Notes under the pieces: model-generated
What the model was told of the DNA's origin: nothing
Seen by the model: the letters and a program-made list of their open reading frames with translations, nothing else
Databases searched by the model: none
Shown: positions 19,386-64,000 of the stretch, in pieces
Numbering within the stretch: position 1 is the first letter of the stretch
Layout: the number at the start of each line of letters is the position of its first letter
Program-made: the position numbers and the translations under genes
Assembly: GCA_003551305.1 (NCBI GenBank)
Contig: PUMJ01000050.1
Location: forward strand, 12,073 to 76,072
Reading direction: 5' to 3'
Length of the DNA: 64,000 nt
Origin: Candidatus Brocadiaceae bacterium
Lineage (GTDB): Bacteria > Planctomycetota > Brocadiia > SM23-32

Positions 19386-21241
19386 CTATTCGAGGATGTC
19401 GTAGAGGACGGCCCCGTCGGCATTGCGGGGAACGGGCAGGCCGGCGGCCGTCGCCAGGGTCGGCGCCACGCTGGTTATCAGCGTCGGCCGCTGTCGCCGG
19501 TAGCCGCTGCGGACGCCCGGGCCGGCCACGATGAAGTAGGAGTCGTCCCGGTGCGAGCCGGCGTTCAGCAGGGGCCAGTCCCACGTGCCGGTCTCCTGGC
19601 GGGTGTGTTTGCGCCAGAACTCCTGGCGGGACATGATGTCCTCGGGGTTGCGCGCGGTGGGCCAGAGGAAGATGTCGCCGACGCGGTCGCCGCCCACGCC
19701 GAGCCGGCGGGCCTTCTCCCGCGGCAGCACGGCCCAGTACGAGGGTTGCCCCAGCCGGTTGGTCACCTGCGAGAGGGCGGAGATCATCTCTCGGCGCAGG
19801 GACTCATACTCGGCGCCCGGCTTGACGATGCCGTCCGGGTCGCGGCCCTTCACGTTCAGGAGGACGTAGTGCTTACGGCCGTAGGCGATCGACCGGCTCC
19901 ATTCTATGGCGCCGTCGGGGCCGTCCACGAGCCACCCGTACCCGCGCAGCACGTCGTTGATCTTCGGGTGGGGATGACGCACGGGCAGTTGCGTGTCGCC
20001 GCCGTGGTCGCTGACCAGCGCGACCAGCGCTTCCGGCCCGGCGGCCTCCATCACGCGCCCGACAATCTGGTCCCCCCAGCCCATGATGTCGTCCCACAGC
20101 GCCCAGCCCTCCCCGGCGCGCTCGGGCTCGTACATGGGGTGGCGGGGGTCAATCATGTACATGGTCAGGTGGTTGGTCCAGTCCGGCCCGTGCCATTTGA
20201 GCATGAACAGGTCCCACTCGTGGCTGGTGAGGACGTGGCCGGCGGCCTGGCGCCACCAGCGGGCCAGGTGCTTCTGCTCCTCGAAGTAGGTGGCGATGTC
20301 GCAGGCGCCGGCCTGCACCACCTGCTGGCGGGAGCACTGGATGATGAACGGGCCGCACGCTTCCAGCAGTTCGTCGGTCAGCCCCCGCGGGTGCACGAAC
20401 TCCTCCAGCGGGTATATCTCGCTCAGGTAGAGGTGCACGCGGGAGGCGTCGGGCTCCAGGATGAGCAGCTTGCCGCGCAGGCCGGCGCGCACGTCCCCGC
20501 GGTCGGTGCTGAAGGTGTGGTGGACCCATTCGCTCATCCGGTCGAGTTCGAAGACCAGGAGGGGCTGGTCCCCGCCGCGTCGGGCGTACAGTTCGACGCG
20601 CTCGTAGCCCCCGGCCCCCTCGAGGATGAGGGCGTGGAGCGGCTTGACGCTCTCGTAACGGCTGGCGCGTCCCGGCCGTATGCTGACCTTGAAATAGAGC
20701 GCGCCTTCCGGGGCGCCGGGCCAGTCTTCGGCGGGCTGCGGTGTGACGGGGGTCACGTGGCACTGCACCCGGTAGTCGTCCAGCGAGCGGGGGTGCGTGG
20801 TGTAGGCGCGGGCCTCCTGCAGGGCGCGAATGGCGTTGTCGGGGCGGCCGTCCTCACCCACGTGAACCAGCCCGTCCTCGACGGTGAGGGGCCAGGAATG
20901 GGCCCAGTCGAAGACGACGGACCGGCCCCCCTCGCGGCGGACCGCCTCCCAGAGATGCTCCGCCTTGCAGACGGAGGAAGGGAAGCCCCTCACCCACTCG
21001 TCCAGCGGCCGGCCGGGGAAGTGGGTGCTCATGTTGCAGCCGCTCACCCAGGGGCTGGCGCCGGTGGAGAGGCAGGCCCAGTTCGTGCCTGTCTCGAAAG
21101 GAAAGCACGGCCACGTCTGCGTGGTGCTGCCGCGCTCGATGAGGCGCTTCACGTTCGGCATGACCCCGCGCTCGACGAACTCGAGCAGCGTGGGCAGCGA
21201 GATGGAATCGAACCCGACAACGGCCACTTTTCGGCTCTTCA
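19386..21241 (-). CDS. Alkaline phosphatase superfamily protein (type I phosphodiesterase / nucleotide pyrophosphatase-like)
   Basis: N-terminal metal-site region VAVVGFDS and the LVSDHGG motif. Start taken at MKSRKV (21241). Confidence 0.7.
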
Positions 21242-21535
21242 TTGCTATCGTCTCCCGGGGTGATTGCCTTTCGGCGCGTATCAACAGGGTCTCGGCGGGG
21301 TTGAGTCGACGTGCGGCGGATTGCCGAGTGCGTCGCCGTGCACGCCGAACAGAGCATTGCGGTCTCCCGTTCCGGAACCGGTTGCCTTCCGCTATGTCAT
21401 TCCTGAGCCACGCATTGGCGGCAAGAAGGGTCTGCGACCCGGAACCGCCGCGGTGCACGGTCCGCCTGCCAGGGGCGTCAAACCTCCAGAACCCCACGCG
21501 AGGAGACCATGGCACGGGCGCCCGGGGCCTGCGCC

Positions 21536-23017
21536 TCAGTGCCGCCCACGGTTGTTCCAACCCGTGCGGGCGCGCGCCTGCTCCAGGTCCACCTCCCGCA
21601 GGTTGGGGCGCAACCGGCCGTCCCGGGCGTGCTCGTCTCCCTGGCGTTCAAAATAGCTGATCAGCCTCTCCCGCCACATCTCCAGCGTGTCTCTGCAGTC
21701 CGGGTCATCGGCCAGATCATGGCAATCGTTCGGGTCGTTCTCCTGGTCAAACAGAAACTCGTAGTCGTCCTGAGCGAACCACATGTACTTCGTGCGGCCG
21801 TCGCTCATGCCGAACACTTCGGCGCACCGGCCGAACGTATAGCTGCGGAACGGCGCCCCGTCGTCCAGAAGCTGCGGCACGAGGCTGCGGCCCTCGACCG
21901 AGTCCGGCACATCGAGGCCGCAGACCTCCAGGATGGTCGGCATGATGTCCATCAGGTCCACCGGCGCGGTGTCGTTGGCCCGACCGGGGCGGAAACCGCG
22001 CTCGGCCGCCCATGGGCGCGGCGGGCGCACGATGAACGGCACGTTCGTGGAGCCGCGGAAGAAGTCGCCCTTCGCCAGGTTGCCGTGGTCGAAAAGCTGG
22101 TCCCCGTGGTCGCTGGTGAAGATGATGAGCGTGTTCCCCAGCAGGCCGTGCTCCCGCAGGTGGCCCAGCAGGACGCCGACGGTGCTGTCTATGTGGGTGA
22201 CCAGCGCCGCGTAACCGCGCAGGCTCTGTTGGATCATCAGCGGGTGGTCGGCATAGTCGTCGTAGTTGTTGCGCAGTTGCAGCGCCCGCACGCGTCCCGG
22301 CAGCTTTCGGTCCACCCAGTCCCCGCGCGCCGGCTCGGGCATCGACGCGTCGCGGTAGAGTTCATAGTAGTCGCGCGGCGGGGTGAGGGGCGGGTGCGGC
22401 TTGTCGAAGGAGACGTGCAGGAAGAAGGGGCGCGTGGGGTCGCGGCGGTCTATGAACTCCATGGCGCGCTGGCCGGTCCAGTGCGTGGTGGTGAACTTCT
22501 CCGGCAGCGGGCTCATCCGAACGCCGTACTCGTTGTTGCCCAGCCCGTGGGTGTAGGCCAGGTGCCCGTAGCCGTTCTCGTCCAGGAACGCCTCGTAGTC
22601 GTCCTTCAGCATGCCTGCGTGGCGGCGGCCTTCCTCGTTGAGCTGGACGTCCTCGAAGCCGATGCGGTTGCGCTGCGGGTGGGTGTGCAGCTTGCCGGAC
22701 GCGAATGTCTGGTAGCCGGCGCGGGTCATCACTTCGGCCAGCTTCGGGCCCTCGGGGAAGGGCTGCTCACTGTTGCGGTCCATGTGGATCGAGTAGGTGC
22801 CCAGGCCGGTCATCATGATGCGGCGGGCGGGCACGCAGACCGGGCACTGGCTGAAGGCGCGCCGGAAGTTGACACCTTCATAGGCTAACTGGTCAATCTG
22901 CGGGGTCATCATCGTAGGATGCCCCCCGACCCCCAGCCAGTCGGCGCGCAGGTGATCGCAGCATATCAGCAGAACGTTCGGTCTCGCGGGGTCCCGCGCC
23001 GGGTCCGGCATGTTCAC
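21536..23017 (-). CDS. Sulfatase (formylglycine-dependent; C-x-P-x-R = CVPAR)
   Basis: LLICCDHLRAD...CPVCVPARRIMMTGL, the classic sulfatase N-terminus. Confidence 0.9.
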   Translation of the reverse strand: MNMPDPARDPARPNVLLICCDHLRADWLGVGGHPTMMTPQIDQLAYEGVNFRRAFSQCPVCVPARRIMMTGLGTYSIHMDRNSEQPFPEGPKLAEVMTRAGYQTFASGKLHTHPQRNRIGFEDVQLNEEGRRHAGMLKDDYEAFLDENGYGHLAYTHGLGNNEYGVRMSPLPEKFTTTHWTGQRAMEFIDRRDPTRPFFLHVSFDKPHPPLTPPRDYYELYRDASMPEPARGDWVDRKLPGRVRALQLRNNYDDYADHPLMIQQSLRGYAALVTHIDSTVGVLLGHLREHGLLGNTLIIFTSDHGDQLFDHGNLAKGDFFRGSTNVPFIVRPPRPWAAERGFRPGRANDTAPVDLMDIMPTILEVCGLDVPDSVEGRSLVPQLLDDGAPFRSYTFGRCAEVFGMSDGRTKYMWFAQDDYEFLFDQENDPNDCHDLADDPDCRDTLEMWRERLISYFERQGDEHARDGRLRPNLREVDLEQARARTGWNNRGRH

Positions 23018-25925: not shown

Positions 25926-27056
25926 GTGCCCATGAACGCCCGTGAACGCTTCATCGAGACGCTGACGTTCGGAACCCCCGACAAGGTCCCCTTCTCCCCG
26001 GGCTGGCCGCGGGAATCAACCCGTGCCAACTGGCGCACACAGGGCCTGCCCGAGGGCCGCAACTGGTTCGAAGTCCTCTGTGAAGAGATAGGCGTCGAGC
26101 GCGAGCCCACGAAGGACCGGGTCAGCCACGGCGTGGACTTCCGGATGATACCGCAGTTCGAGGAGAAGACCCTCGAACACCGCGACGGCCATTACGTGGT
26201 GCAGGACTGGAAGGGCAACATCTGTGAGATATCGGACCAGTTCGACCCGCGCTACCTGCGCCAGGCCATAGATTTCGTGACGCGCAAGTGGATCAAGCTG
26301 CCGGTCGAGAACCGCGACGACTGGGAGGATATGAAGCGCCGCTACGACCCTGAGGCGCCGGGCCGGTTCCCCGAGGACTTCGAGGAGCGCTGCCGGCGGC
26401 TGCGCGAGCGGGATTACCCCTGCACGGTACACTTCTCCGGCCCGTTCTGGCAGATACGCGAGTGGGTCGGCTTCGAGCGGCTGTGCATGATGTTCATCGA
26501 GGAGCCCGACTTCCTGGCCGAGATGGTCGAGTTCTGGACGGAGTTCGTCTCGCGCACCCTGGCCCCCATCCTCGAGGCCGGCGTGGCCGACAGCGTTTAC
26601 ATCAGCGAGGACATGGCCTTCAAGGAACGCCCGATGGTCAGTCCGGTGATGGCGCGGGAGTTCCTCAAGCCGGCCTACGACCGCTGGGGCGGCCAGGTCC
26701 GCCAGGCCGGCGTGCCCGTCTATGACATGGACTCCGACGGCAAGATCGAGGAGCTGATCCCCGTCTGGATGGAGGCCGGCATCAACGTCTGCGACCCCGT
26801 CGAGGTGGCGGCCGGCAACGACATCGTCCGCTACCGGCAGGAGTTCGGACGCCAGATGGCCTACCGCGGCGGCGTGGACAAGCGCGCCATGGCGAAAGGC
26901 GGGGAGGTCATCGAGGCGGAGCTGGAGCGCGTCGCCCCCGTGGTGCAGGACGGCGGCTACATCCCGAGCTGCGACCACGGCGTGCCGGCGAACGTCTCCT
27001 GGCCGGACTTCGTCCACTACTCCCGCCTGCTGGCGGGGTTGACCGGCTGGCTGTGA
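25926..27056 (+). CDS. Uroporphyrinogen decarboxylase (URO-D) family protein
   Basis: URO-D/MtaA-like fold throughout. Confidence 0.7.
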   Translation: MPMNARERFIETLTFGTPDKVPFSPGWPRESTRANWRTQGLPEGRNWFEVLCEEIGVEREPTKDRVSHGVDFRMIPQFEEKTLEHRDGHYVVQDWKGNICEISDQFDPRYLRQAIDFVTRKWIKLPVENRDDWEDMKRRYDPEAPGRFPEDFEERCRRLRERDYPCTVHFSGPFWQIREWVGFERLCMMFIEEPDFLAEMVEFWTEFVSRTLAPILEAGVADSVYISEDMAFKERPMVSPVMAREFLKPAYDRWGGQVRQAGVPVYDMDSDGKIEELIPVWMEAGINVCDPVEVAAGNDIVRYRQEFGRQMAYRGGVDKRAMAKGGEVIEAELERVAPVVQDGGYIPSCDHGVPANVSWPDFVHYSRLLAGLTGWL

Positions 27057-27099
27057 GTGAACCCTGAACTGCCCCGAGCTCCCTCTGGGCACTGCCGCC

Positions 27100-28215
27100 T
27101 CATAGGCGTTTGAACTCGGCGGCGACGGCGCGGGCTTTCTCGAAGGAGACCGGCGGAGGCAGCACGCCCGCTGAGGTGAGGAATATCCCGCGCCTGTCCG
27201 GGCACCGCTCCAGGTCGGCTGACACCTCGGCCACTATCTGCTCGACCGGCGCCAGCCAAAGCGCGGCGTTGGTGCCGCCGATGAGGGCCTTTGACGGCAT
27301 GCGCGCCCGCCCCTCGGCCAGGGTCGTGTCGCCGACCGGGGGCGTCGTGTACGCCTCGTTGGCCTGGGCGGGCAGCTCGTCTATCATCTCCAGCAGGGCG
27401 TTGAGCGTACCGCACATGTGGTGGACGGCGATCTTGCCGTGTTCGATGATGATATCCCCGTATTCGCGAAGCTGCGGCATGCAGAACTCGCGGAACATGG
27501 CCGGGCTGATCAGCGTGGTGCTCGTGTTCTCCGAGAGCCAGAAGCTATCGGCCGCCACCCGGGGCAGCAGGGCCTCGAGCTCGCGCACGCGGTCGCGGTG
27601 CATCAGCTCCACCACCTCGCGGAAAAGCTCCGGTTCGTCGTGCAGAAGGTAGGTGGTGTTCTGCGGCCCGCACTGGTGCTCGACCAGGTCCATCAGGGGG
27701 GAGGGGCCGATGCCCGTCATGGTGAAGGCGTCCCGCGCCTCGAGATCTTTCCGGCGAGCGGCCCACTCCTCGGCCTTCTCGGTCGGCACCGCGAAGGTCG
27801 TATCTTTGAACAGCCAGCGCAGGCGCCGGAGGTTCTCGGCGCTGTCGGCGGGGAACTTCGTCGGGTGCCAGCTCTCCGTATAGGGGTCGTAGGTCTGCTC
27901 AGCCACCAGGGGGCCGTCGGGCGTCTCCATGGTCTTGCGGCGCACGCCGTCTTTCTCGGAGGTCGTTATCTCGACGTGCGGCGTCTGTTTGCGCGCCCCT
28001 CCCCAGCAGCCCAGCATCAGGTCACAACCGGCCGCCCGGAGCAGTTCCTCGGCGCCCATGTCGCAGTAGGGCCCGGGCTGGGAGGATTGCCAGGTGCGGT
28101 TGGTCATCTTCAGCCAGACGGGGAAGCGGTCCACCTCCTCGCCCCGGATGGTGGCGAAGATGCGCTCCCGGTTGGTCATCGTCTCGGTGCTGCTACCTGC
28201 CTCTGCGGCCGCCAT
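27100..28215 (-). CDS. Uroporphyrinogen decarboxylase (URO-D) family protein (paralog)
   Basis: URO-D-like. Convergent with the previous gene. Confidence 0.7.
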   Translation of the reverse strand: MAAAEAGSSTETMTNRERIFATIRGEEVDRFPVWLKMTNRTWQSSQPGPYCDMGAEELLRAAGCDLMLGCWGGARKQTPHVEITTSEKDGVRRKTMETPDGPLVAEQTYDPYTESWHPTKFPADSAENLRRLRWLFKDTTFAVPTEKAEEWAARRKDLEARDAFTMTGIGPSPLMDLVEHQCGPQNTTYLLHDEPELFREVVELMHRDRVRELEALLPRVAADSFWLSENTSTTLISPAMFREFCMPQLREYGDIIIEHGKIAVHHMCGTLNALLEMIDELPAQANEAYTTPPVGDTTLAEGRARMPSKALIGGTNAALWLAPVEQIVAEVSADLERCPDRRGIFLTSAGVLPPPVSFEKARAVAAEFKRL

Positions 28216-37456: not shown

Positions 37457-38014
37457 ATGAACTGGAAGAAGCACATCATCATCTTCCTGGTTGTTTTCCT
37501 GCTCGGCGGCCTGCTGATGCGGCCGGGCGGGTGCGCGCCGGCCGGCGTCGGGCACCCCGAGGACGCGGTGTTTGTGGAACTGAGCGTGCCGGAAGCGCCC
37601 CGCGTCGAACACCAGGCCGCCGTCTCCTACACCATCCGGGCCGAAGTGGCCGACACGCCCGAGAAGCGGCAGCAGGGGCTGACCGGTCGGCGAGGACTGG
37701 AGCCCGGCTACGGGATGCTCTTCGTCTATCCCGAACCGTCCGAGCCCCGGATGAGCCAGGCAGAGACGCCCTTCCCCCTCTCGGTGGCCTTTGTGACCGA
37801 GGACGGCGAGATCATCGGCATCAGGGACACCGAGCCGAACGACTCGACCATCTTCACGCCGCCTGAGCCGGTTCCCTACGTGCTGCAGGTGCGGGGGGGC
37901 TGGTTCGCGGACAGGGGGCTGGAGGAGGGCGACCGGCTCGAAATCGGCGGGCTCCCCGAAGAGCGCCCGGCCGGCCCCGAGGGTGAAGCGCCCGAACAGC
38001 CCCTCACCGGGTGA
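37457..38014 (+). CDS. DUF192 (COG1430) family protein, secreted
   Basis: Signal/TM N-terminus. Motifs ...RQQGLTGRR..GYGMLFVY...FPLSVAFVTEDGEIIGI...YVLQVRGGW match DUF192. Confidence 0.65.
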   Translation: MNWKKHIIIFLVVFLLGGLLMRPGGCAPAGVGHPEDAVFVELSVPEAPRVEHQAAVSYTIRAEVADTPEKRQQGLTGRRGLEPGYGMLFVYPEPSEPRMSQAETPFPLSVAFVTEDGEIIGIRDTEPNDSTIFTPPEPVPYVLQVRGGWFADRGLEEGDRLEIGGLPEERPAGPEGEAPEQPLTG

Positions 38015-40025
38015 CCTCGGAGTCGGTCTCTTCCAGATCCTCACGCTCCTGCAGGCTCAGGCCCGCCATGTGGTGCGTCTTGACGGCGACCCAGATGCAG
38101 GCGGTCAGCCCGCCGAACAGCAGGGCGGCGGCCACGGCGGCCATCGCCGCGGGTGCCACCACCTGGCCGGCCGATCGCCCCGTGGCGATGCCCAGCCAGG
38201 CGAGAAACACCAGGAACAGCACCCCCGTTCCACCGATGGCGACCACCATGCGGTTGTGGCGCGCCAGCAGCAGCGCCACGCAGAACAGGAAACCGAACCA
38301 CCCCCATCCGGCCAGCGTCACCGAGTGGGGCAGTATCGCGTCGTAGCCGCCATAGACCTCGGTCACGTCGGTGAGGAACTGGTTGGCCAGCAGGAAGATG
38401 AGGATCGCCGGCGTGATGACCTTCACGAACGCGTCGAACCAGTTGTGGACCTTTATCTCGCTGTGCTCGTTGATATAGTCCTTCAGCTCGTCTAAATGGA
38501 AGAAGTAGCCCACGGCGATGCACTGCAGCAGGCCGACCAGCACCAGCCCGTAGTTGCTCATCCAGCGGTCCACGATGTCCAGCCACATCAGGCCGCTGCG
38601 CGTGCAAAACACCAGGCTGCCCAGGAATCCGATGATGCACAGAGCGGCGGTCATGACGGGCCGGCTCACCCAGGCCAGGCGGTCGCGCAGACCCGTCACG
38701 GCGCCCTCGATGAGGCTGAAGGCACTGTCAATGCCCAGAGTGATGAGGCAGGCGAAAAAGACAAATGACAGGGCGCCGATGGCCCAGCCGGCCATGGGCA
38801 TCTTGGCCAGAGCGATGGGATAGGTGATGAACACGAGGCCCGGCCCGCCGGCCACCACGTCCTCCACGCTCTGGCCCTGCACGAAGGCCAGGTAGCCGAG
38901 CACGCTGAAGACGGCCAGGCCGGCTATGAAGCTAATGGCGCAGTTGCCGAAGCTCGTGATGAAGGCGCTGTTGGTGACGTCGCTCTCGGGCGGCATGTAG
39001 CTCGCATAGGCTATCAGGATGCCGAACCCGAGGCTGAGGCTGAAGAAAATCTGGCCGTAGGCGGCTATCCAGACCGACGGGTCTTTGAGCATCTCCCAGT
39101 TCGGCCTGAGGTAGTAGAACAGCCCCTCGGCCGAGCCCGGCAGCGTCACGCCACGCAGAAGCATCACCAAGAGCAGCAGGATGGGCAGCGGCACGGTGAC
39201 CATGACGACCTTGCCGACGCTGTGGACGCCCTTGAAGATGATGAGGAAGATGGCCAGCCACGTTACGAAGGCGCCTATCAGCAGCCCGGGGGTCAGGCGG
39301 AAGAGCCGCGGCGGGGCGCGCTCCGCCTGCCCGCCCCCCTCCTCGGCGGCGGCCTGCACCCAGTAGCCGGGGCGGAAGCCGCCGAGCACGACCTCGTTGA
39401 AGTAGTTCTCCACGTTCTCGGTGAGGGAGACGAACCGGACGTCGCGGTTCTCGGGCCGGGCCTGCCGTTCTTCGACTTCGGCGGGGCTCAGCACGGGCAG
39501 GCGGTCCTCGGGGGCGCGGCGCTGCTGGGCGGCCTCCTCGCGGGCGCGCTGCCGCTCGTCGCGCGCCAGGATGTAAAGGCTCACCCTCTCGGCCGGGAAC
39601 TCCGTCAGCACCGCTTCGCCGTCCACGACATCCACCTCGTGCGTGGGGGCGGGCCGCGTCCAGGCGACGTTCCAGGAAGCGGCCGCGTAGTGCCAGGCGT
39701 AGGCCATCACGACCACGTAATAAAATGTGATGGTGGTGGCGACCAGGAGGGCGAACCACCCGACCCACCGGAAGTGCTCGGTGACGGCGGCCATGGCCTT
39801 CGGCGCGCCGCCCTGGAACTTCTGACCCAGGGCGTACTCGACGATCATCAGCGGTATGCCGGCGCTGAAGAGAGCGACGAAATAGGGGATGAAGAACGCG
39901 CCCCCGCCGTGCTGGTAGGCGATAGTGGGGAAGCGCCACAGGTTGCCCAACCCCACCGCGCTGCCGATGGCGGCCATGATGAAGGCGGTGCGGCTGATCC
40001 ACCTGTCCCGGGGTTGCTGCGCCAT
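38004..40025 (-). CDS. Sodium-dependent transporter, NSS (SNF) family, with a long charged insertion
   Basis: N-terminal AIGSAVGLGNLWRFP is the NSS hallmark. Start taken at MAQQPR (40025). Confidence 0.85.
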   Translation of the reverse strand: MAQQPRDRWISRTAFIMAAIGSAVGLGNLWRFPTIAYQHGGGAFFIPYFVALFSAGIPLMIVEYALGQKFQGGAPKAMAAVTEHFRWVGWFALLVATTITFYYVVVMAYAWHYAAASWNVAWTRPAPTHEVDVVDGEAVLTEFPAERVSLYILARDERQRAREEAAQQRRAPEDRLPVLSPAEVEERQARPENRDVRFVSLTENVENYFNEVVLGGFRPGYWVQAAAEEGGGQAERAPPRLFRLTPGLLIGAFVTWLAIFLIIFKGVHSVGKVVMVTVPLPILLLLVMLLRGVTLPGSAEGLFYYLRPNWEMLKDPSVWIAAYGQIFFSLSLGFGILIAYASYMPPESDVTNSAFITSFGNCAISFIAGLAVFSVLGYLAFVQGQSVEDVVAGGPGLVFITYPIALAKMPMAGWAIGALSFVFFACLITLGIDSAFSLIEGAVTGLRDRLAWVSRPVMTAALCIIGFLGSLVFCTRSGLMWLDIVDRWMSNYGLVLVGLLQCIAVGYFFHLDELKDYINEHSEIKVHNWFDAFVKVITPAILIFLLANQFLTDVTEVYGGYDAILPHSVTLAGWGWFGFLFCVALLLARHNRMVVAIGGTGVLFLVFLAWLGIATGRSAGQVVAPAAMAAVAAALLFGGLTACIWVAVKTHHMAGLSLQEREDLEETDSEVTR

Positions 40026-40338
40026 GACTCTCGGGCCCCTGCCGGATGGAGGTAGCTGGGAAAGATGCGGCACCATACGCCAGGTGGCAGCATTCTACAG
40101 GAGGCGCCCCGAACGAATCAACTGGGCAAGGGACTGCCAAAGCGGCAGACGCCCGGTGCGCCATGCCATATTGGCAGTGTCGTGGGTGGGTGCCGGGACG
40201 AGAGCCGGACCGCGTGAGGCTGTATGATGTTTTATATAAGGCGTTTAGCGCACAGGTTGACCTCCTGGCATGGTCGTTGCTCAAACATAGAGTGAACGGA
40301 CAGAAGGTAGTGAGACTCTTGGACAAGGGGGTAGAGCC

Positions 40339-57620: not shown

Positions 57621-58799
57621 TCAGTCCGTCTTCCGGCGGCGAACTTCCTCCAGGAACGGCGTGCGGCCGGTTTCGACGCACCTGGCGGCATAAAGGTACA
57701 TGGCCGCCGACCAGGTCTGCCAGTCCTGCCCGGCGACCTGCGCGTCCTGGGCGCGGAACCACTCGTTGAAACCGAACTCGACGTCGTGGTCGCGGGCGGG
57801 CCTGACCAGCCGGGTCAGGGCCTCGAAGTTCCGCTCAGCGATGCGCGGGCGTCCGGCAGCGACGGCCGCTGCCACGTAGAAGCCGCATATGAACGGCCAG
57901 ACGCCGCCGTTGTGGTATTCGCCGGGCCGGCCGTAAGTCTCGTAGCGGGGGCGCCAGTCAGGGTCCTCCGGGCGGATGTAGGGGAAGAAATTCGGCGGCA
58001 GGTCAAGCGCCAGGTCGCCGCCCGCGCGCAGGACCTTGCACTCGGCCTCGACCCAGGCGATGAGCCGCTGCGCCCGCGTCGGCGAGGCAATGCCCAACAG
58101 CACCGCCAGGCTGTTGCCCAGCAGGTCGAACCGCTCGCTGTTGTATGCCTTGTAGGACCAGAGGGCGTAGTAGGGCTTGTGCGGCACCGCCAGCCCCTCG
58201 TGCACGTGCCGCTGGCGGCGGCCGCCCCGCACGTCGAACCTGTTCATAAGCGCTCGCAGTCTGTCGGCGCGCTCGTGACAGCCGAACAGCCGCAGGTGCC
58301 CGTGCACCAGCGAGTTGACGTAAAGCCCGTAGCCCTGCACCCACTGCTCGTCGCGCCAGTCGCTGGTGGGCTGCTGGGCCACCATAACCTCGTCGTCCGG
58401 CGCCTGGTACTCCATCCACCTGAGGGCCTTGCGGGCGGCCTCTTCCAGGAAGCCCCGCTGCCCGGACGCCTGCCGATAGGCGGCCAGGCCGATGAGGAAC
58501 AGCGGGGTGGTGTCGCTGGCCCCTCGCTCGTCCCGGTCATGGGCCAGGGACGGGATGTGGCCCAGGGGGCTCTGGTTGTGGGCCAGCGCCTCCAGGGTGC
58601 GCCGCACGGCGTCGTGCAGCCGTTCACTGTCGCTGGTCAGCATGCCGAGTGCGGCGATCATGATGTCGCGCGTGTAGGGCTCGGGGTATCCCCACCCGGC
58701 CGTGCGCGGCAGGCCCCGGCAGGGCCCGCGGGCATTGTGCAGCAGGACCTCCAGCGCCGCCTCTCTGGCTTCTTGGGCGGGGCGGTCGAGCTTCGCCAT
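57621..58799 (-). CDS. (alpha/alpha)6-barrel glycoside hydrolase (GDE_C / GH63-GH100-like)
   Basis: GWGYPEPYTRDIMIA and further (alpha/alpha)6 hydrolase motifs. Lies 2 nt after the GT4 stop. Confidence 0.6.
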   Translation of the reverse strand: MAKLDRPAQEAREAALEVLLHNARGPCRGLPRTAGWGYPEPYTRDIMIAALGMLTSDSERLHDAVRRTLEALAHNQSPLGHIPSLAHDRDERGASDTTPLFLIGLAAYRQASGQRGFLEEAARKALRWMEYQAPDDEVMVAQQPTSDWRDEQWVQGYGLYVNSLVHGHLRLFGCHERADRLRALMNRFDVRGGRRQRHVHEGLAVPHKPYYALWSYKAYNSERFDLLGNSLAVLLGIASPTRAQRLIAWVEAECKVLRAGGDLALDLPPNFFPYIRPEDPDWRPRYETYGRPGEYHNGGVWPFICGFYVAAAVAAGRPRIAERNFEALTRLVRPARDHDVEFGFNEWFRAQDAQVAGQDWQTWSAAMYLYAARCVETGRTPFLEEVRRRKTD

Positions 58800-58801
58800 A
58801 G

Positions 58802-59944
58802 TCAGTCTATCCCCAATCGGTCGGAAATGATCTCGGTAAAACGCCTGGCCACGGCGCGGTAGTCGTATCTCTCGGCGGCCCTCCTGCGGCCGGCCTCGCC
58901 CATGCGGCGGCGCAGTTGCGGGTCTTCCATCAGTTTCAGCAGGTAGTCGGCCAGGTCGTGGACGCTGGCGCGGTAATCGGCCGTGCGGGGCGGGTCGAAC
59001 ACGATGCGGTGTTCCCGCTCATAGCCGGACTCCTCCCCCACGACGGCCTCGCCGACGCGGATTTCCTGGGCGATGCCGGCCAGGAACGCCGTCTCCCCGT
59101 GCACCAGGGTGTCCAGCATGGCCATCGCCCGTATGCCGAGCACGGGCCGGCCGCAGGCGCCGGCCTCCACCTGCGGCATGCCGAACCCCTCCAGCCGCGA
59201 GGGCCCGGCGTAGATGTCACACGCAGCCAGCAGGTAGGGCATGAAGGTGCGGGAGAACATACCGGCCGTGTAAACGACGTTCTTGTCAATGCCGAGCTGG
59301 GTGGCCAGATGCATGTCATAGAGGTTCTGCTGGACGGTTCGAGGCTGGGGCCAGACCTTGCAGACGTACTTCCAGTCGGGCGCGCGGGTGTCTATCAGGG
59401 CGAGCGCCTGCATGACCTCCTGGGCGCCTTTGCTGGCGGCGTCCCCCCCGACGGTCAGGATCATGATCTGGTCCGGCCCGATGCCCAGCGTATCGCGCAC
59501 GGCCGCAACCTTCGGGTCGCTACGTTCCCGCGGTGTGAACGAGTCCGTGTCGCAGCCCACCGGCAGGACCTCCAGGATGTCCTCCTTCAGGCCGTCGCGC
59601 ACGTAGACCTCCTTGACCCAGTTGCTGGTCACCAGGATGAGCGGCAGGTTGTTGAGCACTTCCATGTAGTTGGCTATGTAGCCGTCGGCCACCAGCCAGG
59701 GCACGGGGCGGGCGCCGTAACGCTGAGGGTGCAGCACCAGGTGCGGCGTATGGCCCCAGTAGCCGACCCCCACCACCACGTCCGGCTCGAACCAGCGGTA
59801 GTACCACTCCTTCTCCTGGCTGGACTCGAAGTGGGCCGCCTGCGCCTCGACCCCCATCTCCCGCAGACCCCGGTAGAGCAGGTCGCCCTGCGTGGCCAGC
59901 CCGCCCGGTGAGGGCGGGTAGTCGTAGAGCATCAGCACTTTCAT
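58802..59944 (-). CDS. Glycosyltransferase family 4 (GT4)
   Basis: GT-B fold with the EGFG motif. Start MKVLML (59944) overlaps the LmbE stop as ATGA. An upstream ATG at 59971 is also possible. Confidence 0.8.
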   Translation of the reverse strand: MKVLMLYDYPPSPGGLATQGDLLYRGLREMGVEAQAAHFESSQEKEWYYRWFEPDVVVGVGYWGHTPHLVLHPQRYGARPVPWLVADGYIANYMEVLNNLPLILVTSNWVKEVYVRDGLKEDILEVLPVGCDTDSFTPRERSDPKVAAVRDTLGIGPDQIMILTVGGDAASKGAQEVMQALALIDTRAPDWKYVCKVWPQPRTVQQNLYDMHLATQLGIDKNVVYTAGMFSRTFMPYLLAACDIYAGPSRLEGFGMPQVEAGACGRPVLGIRAMAMLDTLVHGETAFLAGIAQEIRVGEAVVGEESGYEREHRIVFDPPRTADYRASVHDLADYLLKLMEDPQLRRRMGEAGRRRAAERYDYRAVARRFTEIISDRLGID

Positions 59945-60672
59945 CGCTCCGTCCCCCTTTCCTTCTGCCATGTGCGCAAGCTTCCCGGCGAGTCGAAGGC
60001 GAAAAACGCCTCGATGCCGGGGGTGGTCCGCGCCTCGAAACTTCCGGGTCCGAACCCGTACACCTCGGTGACTATGCGCCGTTTCTCCCGCCGGACCGGC
60101 TCGGGCAGCCTCAGCTTCGCATGGGCCGACGGCTCGGCCCGCGGCAGGCGCCGGCCCCCGGCGTCCGCGTAGGCGAACAGCCGCAGGGCCCGGGCCGTCA
60201 GGTCACCCGCCTGCCAGAGCGAGGTCACCGCGCGGCTGACCTCTTCGTGGCGCCGGTGGCGGGTGTATTCACCGCGCGGGCCGTGGGTGAACACCACGTC
60301 GAAGCGCCGCCCCCCGAGCAACCTCACGACGGCCTCCTCGACCGCAGCAGGCTCCAGTGGCGTCTGCTGCGGCCCGTCATCCAGGTCTTCCATCCGCCCC
60401 TCAGCCCCCAGGGCCTCGAGCGCGCGGCCGAACCTGGGCGCCCGGTCCGGGTCGCCGGCCCGACACAGCGTCACTATCCACCAGCGGCATTGCGGGTGCA
60501 GCAGAACCGTCCCGCCGACCCAGAGTGTCTCGTCGTCCGGATGGGCCACCACCACCGCGCCCTCCGAAGTCCCCTCCGGCATGACCTTCCTGTGGTCCGC
60601 TGCCATGGCGTTCCCCCCGGCCGTCCGTAGGCCCGCGTGCAACAATCCCCATGATATCACAAGCCCCGCCAC
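59941..60672 (-). CDS. PIG-L/LmbE family N-acetylglucosaminyl deacetylase
   Basis: VVVAHPDDETL motif. The start may be internal (MAADH or MPEG). Confidence 0.8.
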   Translation of the reverse strand: MAGLVISWGLLHAGLRTAGGNAMAADHRKVMPEGTSEGAVVVAHPDDETLWVGGTVLLHPQCRWWIVTLCRAGDPDRAPRFGRALEALGAEGRMEDLDDGPQQTPLEPAAVEEAVVRLLGGRRFDVVFTHGPRGEYTRHRRHEEVSRAVTSLWQAGDLTARALRLFAYADAGGRRLPRAEPSAHAKLRLPEPVRREKRRIVTEVYGFGPGSFEARTTPGIEAFFAFDSPGSLRTWQKERGTER

Positions 60673-60742: not shown

Positions 60743-62215
60743 TCAGAGCGGCGGCAGCGTGAGCTCGTCGGCGACTTCCTCCTGCCAGGCGCGTATGCGC
60801 TCGGCGAGCCGCCGCATAAGCGGCCGCATCTCGGCCGAGACGGCCAGGTTGCGCGTCTCGCCGGGGTCTTCCTGCAGGTTGTAGAGTTCGTGGTCGCCCC
60901 GCATGCTCCAGTTCAGCTTCCAGCCGTCGGGGGTGATGACAGTGCGGACGGGGTCGGAGGCGGCCTCCTCGGCTTCCTCAATGGTGGCGATTTCGGCCAG
61001 GGGTTCGGGCAGTTCGTCCTCCGCCGCCACCCGTCCCATGATGCTGGCGTTGGCGCCGTTCCACGCAATACAGACGTCCTGCCGGGGCGGGGCGGCGCCC
61101 TCCTTGAGCGCGCCCCTCAGGCTGACCCCCTCCAGGTGGTCGGGCGCCGGGTGGCCCATCAGGTCCAGCAGGGTGGGCACCAGGTCCACCTGGCTGACGG
61201 GCCGGGCGATGCGCCGCGCCGTGGACTGGCCCGGCAGACGAACCAGCAGGGGCACCCTGACCGCCTCCTGGAACATCACGCACTTGGCCAGAAGCTGGTG
61301 GCTGCCCATCATATCCCCATGGTCGGAGGTATAGACCACGATGGTGTTTTCGTCCAGCCCGCAGTCCTCCAGTGTGGCCAGGATGTCGCCCACGTAGGTG
61401 TCCACCAGGCTGCACAACCCCCAGTAGTTGGCGATCAGGCGGCGCCAGTCGGCCTCCGTCTTCAGCGGCAGCCCGCTGTGACCGTAGATGCGGTAGGCGC
61501 GCTGCATCAGGCGCACAAGCAGGGGCTGGTCCTCGGTGGGGACGGCCTCGAAGTTGTCTGGCAACCTGACCTCGGACGGCTCATGCTGCTCGTCGCGGGG
61601 GCCGTAGAACGGACTGTGCGGTTCCAGGAAGTTGACGTAGGCCACCCACGGCCGGCCGCGGTTCTGGCGTATCCAGCGACACGTTTCCCGCGCCAGGAAG
61701 GCCGGCTTGCTGTACTGCTCCGGCAGGCGCGCCGTCTGGCCCCGCCCGAAGACCGTCCCGTTCTTCGGCTCGAACCCGTTCTCCACCAGGAAGTGGTGGT
61801 ATGAGGAGCGCGCCTCCCGGTCCCGTCCTTCGCTGTAGTGGGGGATGTACATGTCCTCGATGCTCACCCACTGCTCGAAACCGTGCTGAGGGAATATCTC
61901 GTCCCCCAGGTGCCACTTGCCGAAGTAGCCGGTGGCATATTCCCCCTGCGGCAGCATCTCCGGCAGGCAGGGCACGTCTTCGGGCAAGGGGATGTTATTC
62001 GCCACGCAGCCGTTCGTGTGCGGGTATAGCCCCGTCATGATGGTGGAACGGGAGGGGGTGCAGACGGGCTGGGTCACGTAGGCGTTCTCGAAAACCGCGC
62101 TTTCCCGGCCCAGGCGGTTCAGGTTCGGCGTCTCGATGCGGTCGTTGCCGTAGGCGGCCATGGTGTCGGCGCGCTGCTCATCGGTAAACAGGAAAAGCAC
62201 GTTCGTCTTCGCCAT
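60743..62215 (-). CDS. Sulfatase (formylglycine-dependent; CTPSR)
   Basis: LFLFTDEQRAD...CTPSRSTIMTGL. Confidence 0.9.
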   Translation of the reverse strand: MAKTNVLFLFTDEQRADTMAAYGNDRIETPNLNRLGRESAVFENAYVTQPVCTPSRSTIMTGLYPHTNGCVANNIPLPEDVPCLPEMLPQGEYATGYFGKWHLGDEIFPQHGFEQWVSIEDMYIPHYSEGRDREARSSYHHFLVENGFEPKNGTVFGRGQTARLPEQYSKPAFLARETCRWIRQNRGRPWVAYVNFLEPHSPFYGPRDEQHEPSEVRLPDNFEAVPTEDQPLLVRLMQRAYRIYGHSGLPLKTEADWRRLIANYWGLCSLVDTYVGDILATLEDCGLDENTIVVYTSDHGDMMGSHQLLAKCVMFQEAVRVPLLVRLPGQSTARRIARPVSQVDLVPTLLDLMGHPAPDHLEGVSLRGALKEGAAPPRQDVCIAWNGANASIMGRVAAEDELPEPLAEIATIEEAEEAASDPVRTVITPDGWKLNWSMRGDHELYNLQEDPGETRNLAVSAEMRPLMRRLAERIRAWQEEVADELTLPPL

Positions 62216-62320: not shown

Positions 62321-63607
62321 TCATTGCCCGGACAGTGAGTGCCGGGCTCGCTGGAGTTCACGGGCGCGGTCGCCGAGTTGCTCGGCGCGAACCGGGCCTC
62401 GCTCCGTGACGATCTCAGAGACAAGATCGGCGGGGACGGTCTCGAAGCAGGGGTTCCGCACGTTCACCCCGGGCAGGCTCTCGCCGAGCTCGGAAGGATC
62501 CATCGTCTCCATCTCGGGACGGTGGCCGACGGGCAGCACCTTGCTCTCGGAGGCCACGACCAGCGTCCGTGCCCCGCCCCACGCGGCGCCGCAGCAGAGG
62601 GCGAAAGTGCCCGTCTTGTTCACCACGGAGCCGTCCGGCAGGAGGCTGTCCGCGCCGGTGAGCACGAGGTCGGCCTCAGCGGCGGTGCGCACGGCGGCGG
62701 CGTCGGTGACGAGTTCGGCGGGGATGGCGAAGGAAGCAGCCAGCTCAGCCGTGCGCCGGCCCTCGCGCGCGGGTCGGGATTCCGCGACGCTCAGCCGTCC
62801 GATGCGACCGGCGGCCCCGCGCAGAGTGGCCAGCACCGAGAAGGAGTAGCTCAGAGTGACGACGTGGCTTCCGTCGGGGATACGCCCTGCGGCACACTCC
62901 GCTGCGCGAAGGGGGGCCAGCTCCCGCCGGGCGATCAGGTCCTCCAGCGCCTGGACCAGCCCCCCGCCCCGGCCGGTGTCGCGGGCAAGGGCCCCGGCCT
63001 CCAGCCCCGCGCTCAGCACGGGCGCCATGCTGGGGCGCAGGGAGAGCGCGGCGCGGCACAGTTCGCGGAAGCGTTCCCGGGGGCCTTCGGCCGCCCACCT
63101 GAGCGCCGTCAGGGTCCGGAGCCCCAGCTCCTCGGCGCCGTGTTCGCGGTCGGCCCGCACCTGCTGGAAGACCGCCCCGGGGTCCGGCCGGCCGTCATGC
63201 CGGGCTACCGCCTGCCAGGTCTCGGTCAGTCGGGGGACGGTCTCCCGTTGCGGGATGTGGTCCGGCTCGGTCCAATCGAAGCGGATGTGCTCCCAGTCAC
63301 GCCGCACCCGTTCGGGGGCCAGGCAGCGGAAGCGGTAGGGATGGACCACCCAGAGGGTGTTCAGGTCCCAGTCGGCGGACCGGACCGGCAGCCCTTCGGC
63401 TGCCAGTTCGACGTCGGAGCGCCGCAGCCCGGTCTCCTCCTTGATCTCGCGGAATGCCTGCTTGCGGGGCCCGGCCTCCTCGACGGATCCGCTCACGGCG
63501 GCCCACCGGCCGGGGTAGGTGCCCACGTCCTCGCTTCGCTCGCCGAGCAGGACCCGTCCGTCCCCGGGGCGCACCAGAAAGCACGTAACCACGTGGCGGA
63601 GTTCCAT
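62321..63607 (-). CDS. Fusion protein: N-terminal Nudix hydrolase + C-terminal eIF-2B alpha/beta/delta-like domain (ribose-1,5-bisphosphate isomerase / MtnA family)
   Basis: Nudix box ..REIKEETGL in the N-terminal ~150 aa. GADSLLPDGSVVNKTGTFALC, the e2b2/MtnA hallmark, in the C-terminal part. Confidence 0.7.
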   Translation of the reverse strand: MELRHVVTCFLVRPGDGRVLLGERSEDVGTYPGRWAAVSGSVEEAGPRKQAFREIKEETGLRRSDVELAAEGLPVRSADWDLNTLWVVHPYRFRCLAPERVRRDWEHIRFDWTEPDHIPQRETVPRLTETWQAVARHDGRPDPGAVFQQVRADREHGAEELGLRTLTALRWAAEGPRERFRELCRAALSLRPSMAPVLSAGLEAGALARDTGRGGGLVQALEDLIARRELAPLRAAECAAGRIPDGSHVVTLSYSFSVLATLRGAAGRIGRLSVAESRPAREGRRTAELAASFAIPAELVTDAAAVRTAAEADLVLTGADSLLPDGSVVNKTGTFALCCGAAWGGARTLVVASESKVLPVGHRPEMETMDPSELGESLPGVNVRNPCFETVPADLVSEIVTERGPVRAEQLGDRARELQRARHSLSGQ

Positions 63608-63619
63608 GAGGCGTGGGGG

Positions 63620-64000
63620 TCAGAACTCGGGGGGGATGTCTATGGGGCGGCCTTCGTGGACCTCGGCGTTGGCGGCGCGGTAAGCCTCGTAGTACTGGCC
63701 CGCTATGACCTCCCAGCTCACCACGTCCATCAGGTAGCGGTAGAGCCTGAAGCCGAGTTCCCAGCGCAGCCCCTCGTCGGTGGCGAGCCTGACGATATTC
63801 TCGTGAAGCATACGGCGGTTTGTGAACAACAGACCGCCGCCGTTCTCGAGCGTCTGGGCCGTCAGCCCCTCCAGGGGCGCCGTGGTGACGTAAGGCTTGT
63901 TCAGCGCAATAATGCGGGCCAGCGTGCCGGACTGCGTCTCGTCCACCGTGGGCAGGACGATGAAGTCGCAGATGCCCATCACCTTGTAATAGACGTCCCC
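63620..64000 (-). CDS. Glycosyltransferase (GT-B, GT4-like), C-terminal part only; gene continues beyond the window end
   Basis: Typical GT4 C-terminal helix region; ORF open to position 64000. Confidence 0.5.
   Translation of the reverse strand, partial: GDVYYKVMGICDFIVLPTVDETQSGTLARIIALNKPYVTTAPLEGLTAQTLENGGGLLFTNRRMLHENIVRLATDEGLRWELGFRLYRYLMDVVSWEVIAGQYYEAYRAANAEVHEGRPIDIPPEF

Follow-up and report, generated by a model that had tools for sequence, protein, structure and literature searches.

The 64,000-nucleotide stretch of contig PUMJ01000050.1 from a Candidatus Brocadiaceae bacterium analyzed here (hereafter the window) encodes, close to its end on the minus strand (62321..63607), a 428-residue protein that unites an N-terminal Nudix domain with a C-terminal domain of the IF-2B fold. 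The sequence affinities of the latter place it in the PH0440-type "aIF2B" clade of PF01008, and not in the clades of the ribose-1,5-bisphosphate (R15P) isomerases or of MtnA. With moderate confidence we favor a reading in which an active Nudix pyrophosphatase is combined with an aIF2B-type domain that would bind a moiety of the Nudix product or substrate, or else an effector, and that would probably also dimerize. A preliminary description of this gene had proposed that the fusion channels R15P from a Nudix pyrophosphatase to a fused R15P isomerase, and the principal outcome of the analysis is a correction, in that this proposal falls at the catalytic residues.

The fusion itself is genuine, unbroken and well past chance. 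A single open reading frame (ORF), with an ATG start and a stop codon inside the above range, runs through both domains and specifies a protein of 46.5 kDa with a pI of 6.1, recovered from the ORF list, from Pfam, as an exact match to the protein cluster P0001 and through full-length homologues. Pfam matches NUDIX over residues 5-121 with 38 bits (E 2e-9; cut-off 21.1) and IF-2B over residues 217-405 with 102 bits (E 3.5e-29; cut-off 22.4). The two peptides quoted in the preliminary description both occur in the translation, REIKEETGL as residues 53-61 and GADSLLPDGSVVNKTGTFALC as residues 318-338, and its account of the architecture is correct. In a profile built from 36 homologues, residues ~140-421 align with residues 21-317 of the Thermococcus kodakarensis (Tk) R15P isomerase, and the IF-2B fold is therefore complete, including its N-terminal helical subdomain. 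An AlphaFold2 model built on the alignment of the same 36 homologues reached a pLDDT of 96.2 and a pTM of 0.93, the latter suggesting a fixed placement of the two domains relative to each other. On the minus strand, the protein can be divided into the Nudix domain (residues about 1-135; 63203..63607), the helical subdomain of the IF-2B fold (residues about 140-240; 62888..63190), delimited by profile alignment to 3vm6 and 5yfs, by conservation and by the helices of the model, and the Rossmann-like subdomain of that fold (residues about 245-428; 62324..62875).

The active-site positions of the IF-2B domain were compared with those of the R15P isomerase of Pyrococcus horikoshii (Ph), in which Cys135 and Asp204 are catalytic, Arg22, Arg65, Gln166 and Lys215 are ligands of the 1-phosphate, Ser137, Lys240, Asn214 and Lys215 bind the 5-phosphate and the sugar, and AMP occupies a separate site (Gogoi and Kanaujia, PMC5789824). 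Alignments to the Tk and Ph enzymes place Ser253, in the TLSYS loop (62843..62857), at the position of the catalytic Cys (Tk Cys133 or Ph Cys135, in the segment THCHS), which is the catalytic Cys position of MtnA as well, and the 36-sequence family alignment has no conserved Cys at any position. The catalytic and sugar-binding Asp (Tk Asp202 or Ph Asp204) is retained as Asp320 of the GAD motif in the GADSLLPDGSVVNKTGT segment (62606..62656), which also includes Asn330 and Lys331 as counterparts of Asn214 and Lys215; the remaining 5-phosphate and sugar ligands are likewise kept, Ser137 as Ser255 and Lys240 as Lys356. Two of the four 1-phosphate ligands are preserved, Lys215 as K331 and Arg65 as R191 of an LRPSM segment in the helical subdomain, and two are replaced, Arg22 by His156, in a D153-x2-H156-G157 motif at the position of Arg22-Gly23, and Gln166 by Glu282 of the ESRPAREG loop (62759..62782). 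A Glu at this 1-phosphate position should disfavor a bisphosphate ligand. The AMP-activator site is gone, with Val, Ala, Ala and Thr in place of Ph Arg190, Lys194, Arg229 and Trp231, and these positions, along with the equivalent of Arg124, fall outside the conserved columns of the family alignment. In the Ph enzyme, the same exchange of Cys for Ser (C135S) abolishes activity and leaves the binding of R15P (Kd 13.8 uM) and of ribulose-1,5-bisphosphate (RuBP; Kd 7.5 uM) in place, and the C133S and C135S mutants are the inactive forms used for substrate complexes (PMC5789824). From these residue comparisons we infer that the C-terminal domain would be unable to act as a Cys-dependent isomerase of either R15P or 5-methylthioribose 1-phosphate.

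It is true that some Nudix enzymes turn phosphoribosyl pyrophosphate (PRPP) into R15P, that the best single PDB and NCBIfam matches of the fusion protein are R15P isomerases, and that the 5-phosphate and sugar ligands are retained together with the catalytic Asp. The model in which the Nudix domain makes R15P from PRPP or from ADP-ribose-1''-phosphate, for conversion to RuBP by the fused domain, is nevertheless very improbable. Apart from the replaced Cys, the near-invariant Glu, the His at Arg22 and the absent AMP site, the protein scores only 89.8 bits with the R15P isomerase equivalog TIGR00511 (EC 5.3.1.29), whose cut-off is 314.1, and the catalytic residues together with this curated cut-off rule out membership in that family. 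Moreover, Haloferax volcanii encodes a separate annotated R15P isomerase, HVO_0966, and its counterpart of the fusion clusters far away from it (PMC8576121). In agreement with the preliminary description, which had placed neither RuBisCO nor AMP phosphorylase in the window, a crude motif scan of the 64 kb revealed no signature of either and no second IF-2B motif. Of the partners of the R15P pathway, namely AMP phosphorylase, ribose-1-phosphate kinase, and form III RuBisCO or RuBP phosphatase, none was found by Pfam among 30 window genes or beside the gene in the related loci examined. The fusion gene most likely lies outside AMP salvage and the pentose-bisphosphate pathway. As to the motif once taken as the hallmark of the e2b2/MtnA family, it is indeed present, but the GAD...NK.GT pattern marks all of PF01008, including PH0440 (PDB: 1vb5), which lacks the catalytic Cys, and hence it is not specific to isomerases. 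The channeling proposal fails because it was built on this family-wide motif and is contradicted by the catalytic residues.

The preliminary description had also allowed for an MtnA-type 5-methylthioribose-1-phosphate isomerase of methionine salvage, and this we regard as scarcely credible. MtnA requires a Cys/Asp pair, of which the Cys is absent from the window protein. The MtnA models TIGR00512 and TIGR00524 give 56.2 bits against a cut-off of 279 and 62.5 against 185.85, below the scores of the R15P isomerase and PH0440 models, and the PDB profile ranking puts MtnA beneath R15P isomerase, PH0440 and eIF2B-beta; the missing Cys and the curated cut-offs together rule out membership. No further gene of methionine salvage was recognized among the annotated window genes. 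In fact, the protein falls well short of every NCBIfam equivalog cut-off.

The affinities of the domain emerge from an exhaustive HMMER search of 1.84 billion representatives, which returned 4348 matches to the C-terminal domain. The best 150 were inspected, and in these Nudix-fused proteins are mixed with standalone proteins of about 280-320 residues; 145 were alignable, and the residue counts given here refer to these nearest representatives at 50% identity, fused and standalone, with two R15P isomerases as the reference. At position 253, 143 of them have Ser and 2 have Thr, where both references have Cys; at position 282, 144 of 145 have Glu, where both references have Gln. Ser255, Asp320, Asn330 and Lys356 are found in all 145, and Lys331 in 143. 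The Ser/Glu pair occurs in 143 representatives, the other two being reported as Thr with Glu. PH0440 itself, which is the best PDB match of one standalone relative (P0128), reads THSFS ... ESSPDYEG ... GAD ... VNKAGT, and the window protein displays the same pattern as TLSYS, ESRPAREG, GAD and NKTGT. The combination of Ser or Thr with Glu, being common to the nearest representatives and PH0440, underlies the placement in the PH0440-type clade, and the grouping with MtnA that the preliminary description had envisaged as an outcome did not materialize. With NF006210, the NCBIfam model of the PH0440 group, the window protein scores 63.1 bits against a cut-off of 339, and its standalone relatives also fall below, so that it is a member of the broad clade only, outside the narrow equivalog. 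A crude neighbor-joining tree of the domain, computed without support values, sets a planctomycete clade beside a haloarchaeal one, with fused and standalone proteins interleaved. The PH0440-type clade has been described as being of unknown function and as having lost the catalytic residues (PMC4787765).

The Nudix domain retains the catalytic glutamates expected of a functional enzyme. In its variant of the Nudix box, GSVEEAGPRKQAFREIKEETGL (residues 40-61; 63425..63490), G40, E54, E57 and E58 are invariant in the 36 homologues and E43 is conserved in at least 90%, so that the loss of catalytic residues contemplated in the preliminary description has not occurred. The REx2EE helix is unbroken and REIKEETGL fits REUXEEXGU. 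Because the metal-binding glutamates of REx2EE are kept, the domain is most likely an active pyrophosphohydrolase, predicted to act on a substrate of the nucleoside-diphosphate-X or nucleoside triphosphate (NTP) type. Relative to the canonical GX5EX7REUXEEXGU, the spacing from G to RE is 13 rather than 14 and the first part is shortened, with a conserved Glu at G+3 standing in place of the Glu of GX5E; R53 is not a conserved position among the homologues. The top sequence and structure neighbors are MutT-related, YfcD and NudI proteins, with ADP-ribose pyrophosphatases mixed in among many others and RppH-type enzymes also represented among the structural neighbors. Assignment to the ADP-ribose pyrophosphatase subfamily was considered and rejected: we take its mark to be a conserved Pro about 16 residues past the Nudix box, the nearest Pro here (P74) lies 13 residues past the box, and the neighbors are not chiefly of this kind, though ADP-ribose could still be a substrate.

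The two-domain architecture is by no means confined to the window. Homologues that align over the full length and carry both Pfam domains reach an E of 1e-184, and 724 cluster representatives have E<=1e-3. The architecture is present in about 50 proteins from planctomycete metagenome-assembled genomes (MAGs) at 47-70% identity, followed by very many from Halobacteria, which match NUDIX and IF-2B in Pfam and show 35-41% identity across 94-99% of the query. With a single peptide pattern run against one genome for each species, 166 relatives were recovered, and the fusion was found in at least 80 species-level genomes (80 genomic loci) from many phyla, with 28 further fused representatives. Its carriers include MAGs labeled Ca. 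Brocadiia or Brocadiaceae (Planctomycetota), Halobacteria, Nitrososphaeria, Ktedonobacterales (Chloroflexota), Acidobacteriota, Rhodothermales, Gammaproteobacteria, Gaiellaceae (Actinomycetota) and Trueperaceae (Deinococcota). The 36-sequence alignment has a mean column identity of 46% and is characterized by the Nudix motifs VVTCFL, WVVHPFxF, DWEH and TVPxL together with an IF-2B domain of the Ser/Glu type. The window protein can be aligned over its full length as a member of this HVO_1934-type family, to which HVO_1934 of H. volcanii is tied by annotation and size (PMC8576121) and not by sequence comparison. In published trees HVO_1934 groups with HVO_2706, far from HVO_0966 (PMC8576121). 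The architecture is already in public annotation, under names such as "NUDIX domain-containing protein" and [quoted passage not shown], and the window gene is one more member of this known family. PADLOC gave no match that would indicate a role in anti-phage defense.

Functional coupling of the two modules is indicated by their fusion in many phyla and by adjacent or overlapping genes in three loci. Two of these are from Ktedonobacterales MAGs: in one (L031) the TAA stop of the Nudix gene precedes GGAGG and the ATG of the IF-2B gene, and in the other (L071) a TAG stop precedes the ATG. On a metagenomic contig, a 149-residue Nudix gene overlaps a 304-residue IF-2B gene by 4 nucleotides. The separate Nudix genes score 157-166 bits with a hidden Markov model of the Nudix domain from the fused family, and thus belong to the same Nudix subfamily, so that the Nudix/IF-2B partnership is specific and recurrent. 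Other standalone IF-2B relatives have Oxidored_molyb or archease genes as neighbors, or none. The rule that standalone proteins with His at the equivalent of position 156 always have a Nudix partner had to be discarded: P0132 has one, and P0142 has Oxidored_molyb upstream. At the split Nudix/IF-2B operon of a metagenomic contig (L091:3992-5915) a gene of the CinA family, to which nicotinamide mononucleotide (NMN) deamidase (PncC) belongs, lies directly upstream on the opposite strand, which may point to a connection with NAD or ADP-ribose metabolism there.

Under the reading that we favor, the Nudix domain would hydrolyze its nucleoside-diphosphate-X or NTP-type substrate, and the C-terminal pocket, by analogy with eIF2B-alpha, would accommodate a sugar 5-phosphate or a nucleoside monophosphate (NMP) as a non-isomerase module. 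The bound ligand could come from the Nudix reaction, as a moiety of its product or substrate such as an NMP or a pentose or hexose phosphate, or it could be an allosteric effector, and the IF-2B domain would probably serve as a dimerization module in addition. A ligand of this kind is suggested by the fact that Nudix reactions release such compounds and that the eIF2B-alpha pocket binds them, namely AMP (Kd 10 uM), GMP (Kd 2.9 uM) and, more weakly, ribose 5-phosphate (R5P) and glucose 6-phosphate (G6P) (PMC4787765). In the planctomycete lineage the protein might control or clean up a nucleotide-sugar or sugar-phosphate pool that feeds the glycosyltransferases encoded alongside it.

This last suggestion stems from the genomic context. 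Upstream of the fusion gene lies the 3' end of a GT4-like glycosyltransferase of about 400 residues, cut by the window edge (63620..64000, minus strand, from the ORF). Its stop codon at 63620 is 12 nucleotides ahead of the ATG of the fusion, with no terminator-like site in the gap, and given this short distance the two genes are probably co-transcribed. An identical Logan contig (L004) carries 397 residues of the glycosyltransferase, which are 75% identical to the 408-residue glycosyltransferase of a related locus (L002). The order PGI, 757-residue GT4, 408-residue GT4-like protein and Nudix/IF-2B fusion recurs in each of the ten planctomycete loci whose upstream flank is long enough, the cluster being found at L002:2902-7962 and in L005, L006 and L011-L018. 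Because the gene ends this conserved cluster, a role tied to nucleotide-sugar or hexose-phosphate supply is the most likely one in the planctomycete lineage, and it is at the same time the weakest step of our proposal. The 757-residue protein combines an MshA-like GT4 N-terminal half with a 365-residue C-terminal half that carries a GYCTDDNARAL segment. Searches with the clustered glycosyltransferases gave weak GT4 matches of the MshA and PimA kind and no useful one for this C-terminal half, and the divergent 408-residue GT4-like protein has no match in PDB or NCBIfam. A rhamnosidase and an SNF symporter adjoin the cluster in L002, L005 and L006, and their counterparts in the window (34516-37179 and 38004-40076, respectively) lie ~25 kb away, a displacement that suggests rearrangement.

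Neighborhoods were compared by tblastn of reference neighbors and by ORF calls filtered on GC content at the third codon position (GC3), and in the compared loci no neighbor proved universal across phyla. In Halobacteria of many genera (L001, L008, L020-L089) the fusion gene is preceded by a divergent CofE (F420-0:gamma-glutamyl ligase) and a luciferase-like oxidoreductase and followed by a D-2-hydroxyacid dehydrogenase. The biosynthetic intermediates of F420 include nucleotide-linked compounds, which would in principle be substrates of the Nudix type. In two Nitrososphaeria MAGs, a gene for aIF2-alpha with S1 and EIF_2_alpha domains (L024:10072-10857, where Pfam was run, and L030:10090-10872) lies downstream of the fusion at a distance of ~0.75 kb, across a single gene on the opposite strand. 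The other lineages share no neighbors around the fusion gene.

The proximity of aIF2-alpha brings up a role in translation, in which a/eIF2-alpha would be the binding partner of the IF-2B domain, with the Nudix domain working on a nucleotide or on an RNA 5' end in that setting. Binding of aIF2-alpha in vitro has been reported for PH0440-type aIF2Bs, and only for archaeal proteins (Dev 2009, as cited in PMC4787765 and PMC8576121), and RppH-type enzymes are among the structural neighbors of the Nudix domain. In light of that report the proximity is intriguing, yet in two related MAGs it could be due to chance. The host and many other carriers are bacteria, which have no e/aIF2, and as the partner is lacking from the host a translational role is essentially excluded for the window protein. 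HVO_1934, for its part, showed few partners in pull-downs, only one or two of the aIF interaction network, and strains deleted for it, even together with HVO_2706, have no growth phenotype (PMC8576121, PMC3828320).

A more serious rival to the binding-module reading, which we would place on the unlikely side, is that the fusion is a bifunctional enzyme, with Glu282 and Asp320 serving as a base in lieu of the Cys and isomerizing, in a channeled manner, a sugar 5-phosphate devoid of a 1-phosphate. For example, the Nudix domain might free ribose 5-phosphate from ADP-ribose, for the C-terminal domain to take the next step. The Cys-to-Ser and Gln-to-Glu replacements do co-occur, with Glu in 144 of the 145 representatives that have Ser or Thr and the references combining Cys with Gln, and the invariance or near-invariance of Asp320, Asn330, Lys331, Lys356 and Ser255 is reminiscent of an active site. 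A swap of Cys for Glu as the base is seen in RpiB enzymes, and both the fusion and the split operons speak for consecutive or coupled steps. Further, the residue equivalent to Glu282 in R15P isomerase is in contact with the C1 substituent (PMC5789824). Conversely, PH0440-type proteins are described as lacking catalytic residues (PMC4787765), the deletion of HVO_1934 was silent in 12 conditions (PMC3828320), and the resemblance of the Nudix domain to minimal MutT, YfcD and NudI-type proteins is no weaker than that to ADP-ribose pyrophosphatases. More generally, the entire Ser/Glu-type clade may process or sense a Nudix product, a conjecture that we put forward tentatively and whose strongest form is the Cys-independent isomerase employing Glu282 and Asp320.

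Several observations weigh against the combination of an active Nudix enzyme with a binding module that we prefer. Asp320, Glu282 and Ser253 are near-invariant at less than 50% identity, a degree of conservation that is enzyme-like, so that a second catalytic activity may be present; the purely regulatory eukaryotic eIF2B subunits presumably lack this Asp. The Nudix box departs from the consensus in its short first part and its non-conserved Arg, and the structural neighbors of the Nudix domain point to no substrate. The closest relative (L010) is without the upstream glycosyltransferase and shares the downstream sulfatase instead, and since the neighborhood is lineage-specific and not conserved between phyla, the role in nucleotide-sugar metabolism may be lineage-specific or wrong. 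Finally, our literature search found no paper that characterizes the Nudix/IF-2B fusion family biochemically.

The remaining genes of the window, as judged from Pfam on 30 of them, constitute a typical planctomycete heterotroph repertoire. On the minus strand (57621..60672), a PIG-L family deacetylase (59941-60672) overlaps by 31 nucleotides a 389-residue GT4 glycosyltransferase (58802-59971) with weak MshA and BshA matches, which is separated by a 2-nucleotide gap from a six-hairpin glycosidase resembling GH100/GDE_C (57621-58799, same strand). The pairing of GT4 and PIG-L deacetylase resembles the first two steps of mycothiol or bacillithiol synthesis, and by analogy its product could be a glycoside containing glucosamine. 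Two convergent URO-D-family paralogues of 376 (plus strand) and 371 (minus strand) residues at 25926..28215 have weak Pfam scores, which fits corrinoid-dependent methyltransferase-like proteins better than genuine uroporphyrinogen decarboxylase. Two sulfatases (493 and 490 residues) and a 724-residue Phosphodiest-family protein are encoded at 19386..23017 and 60743..62215. Between 3600 and 12050 there are long ORFs in which the GC content at the first codon position (GC1; 0.8-0.9) exceeds GC3 (about 0.7), the pattern of antisense frames, and the GC3-filtered gene list is unreliable in this region.

Beyond the correction, the family provides a lead on what is done by those eIF2B-like proteins of archaea and bacteria that are not isomerases. 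The occurrence in bacteria, the invariant pocket (Ser, Glu, Asp, Asn-Lys and Lys) and the repeated pairing with Nudix domains together argue for a metabolic function involving nucleotides or phospho-sugars over that of a translation factor. If a role in dealing with Nudix products does hold across the clade, it would extend to the enigmatic aIF2B homologues of archaea and to the metabolic protein presumed to be ancestral to the regulatory subunits of eIF2B; and were Glu282 and Asp320 to support isomerization, the fusion would be a two-step channeled enzyme with a chemistry not yet described for PF01008.

Compared with known systems, the window protein differs from the R15P isomerases (T. kodakarensis TK0185, PDB: 3a11/3vm6; P. 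horikoshii PH0208, PDB: 5yfj) in having Ser for Cys, His for Arg22 and Glu for Gln166, in possessing a Nudix domain and no conserved AMP site, and in that neither AMP phosphorylase nor RuBisCO is encoded near it. PH0440, the P. horikoshii "aIF2B" (PDB: 1vb5), which is grouped here with the standalone IF-2B proteins of bacteria and archaea, has no Nudix domain and bears Lys at the position of His156. Eukaryotic eIF2B-alpha shares the fold, with a lower sequence score (profile 122 bits), and the window protein is from a bacterium, a group without eIF2. We take eIF2B-alpha to have GAE instead of the GAD whose Asp is retained in the window protein, and Ser at the position of Glu282. Like the window protein, eIF2B-alpha is devoid of the catalytic Cys, with Ala or Gly in place of Ser253 (PMC5789824), and its pocket binds AMP, GMP, R5P and G6P without turnover (PMC4787765, PMC5789824). 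For the Nudix domain, the appropriate comparison group is that of the minimal MutT, YfcD and NudI-type hydrolases (e.g., PDB: 3grn, 2fkb and 3oga), from which it is set apart by the family's own motifs WVVHPFxF, DWEH and TVPxL, by the shortened box and non-conserved Arg, and by the constant pairing of this subfamily with an IF-2B module, whether in one protein or as the product of the adjacent gene. The window protein is also close to the HVO_1934-type haloarchaeal fusions, with which it has in common the two domains, the length, the motifs TLS[RY]S, ESRPxxEG and GAD...VNKTGT and those of the Nudix subfamily; it differs from them in its bacterial (planctomycete) host and in its neighbors, PGI and glycosyltransferases as against CofE, a luciferase-like gene and 2-Hacid_dh.

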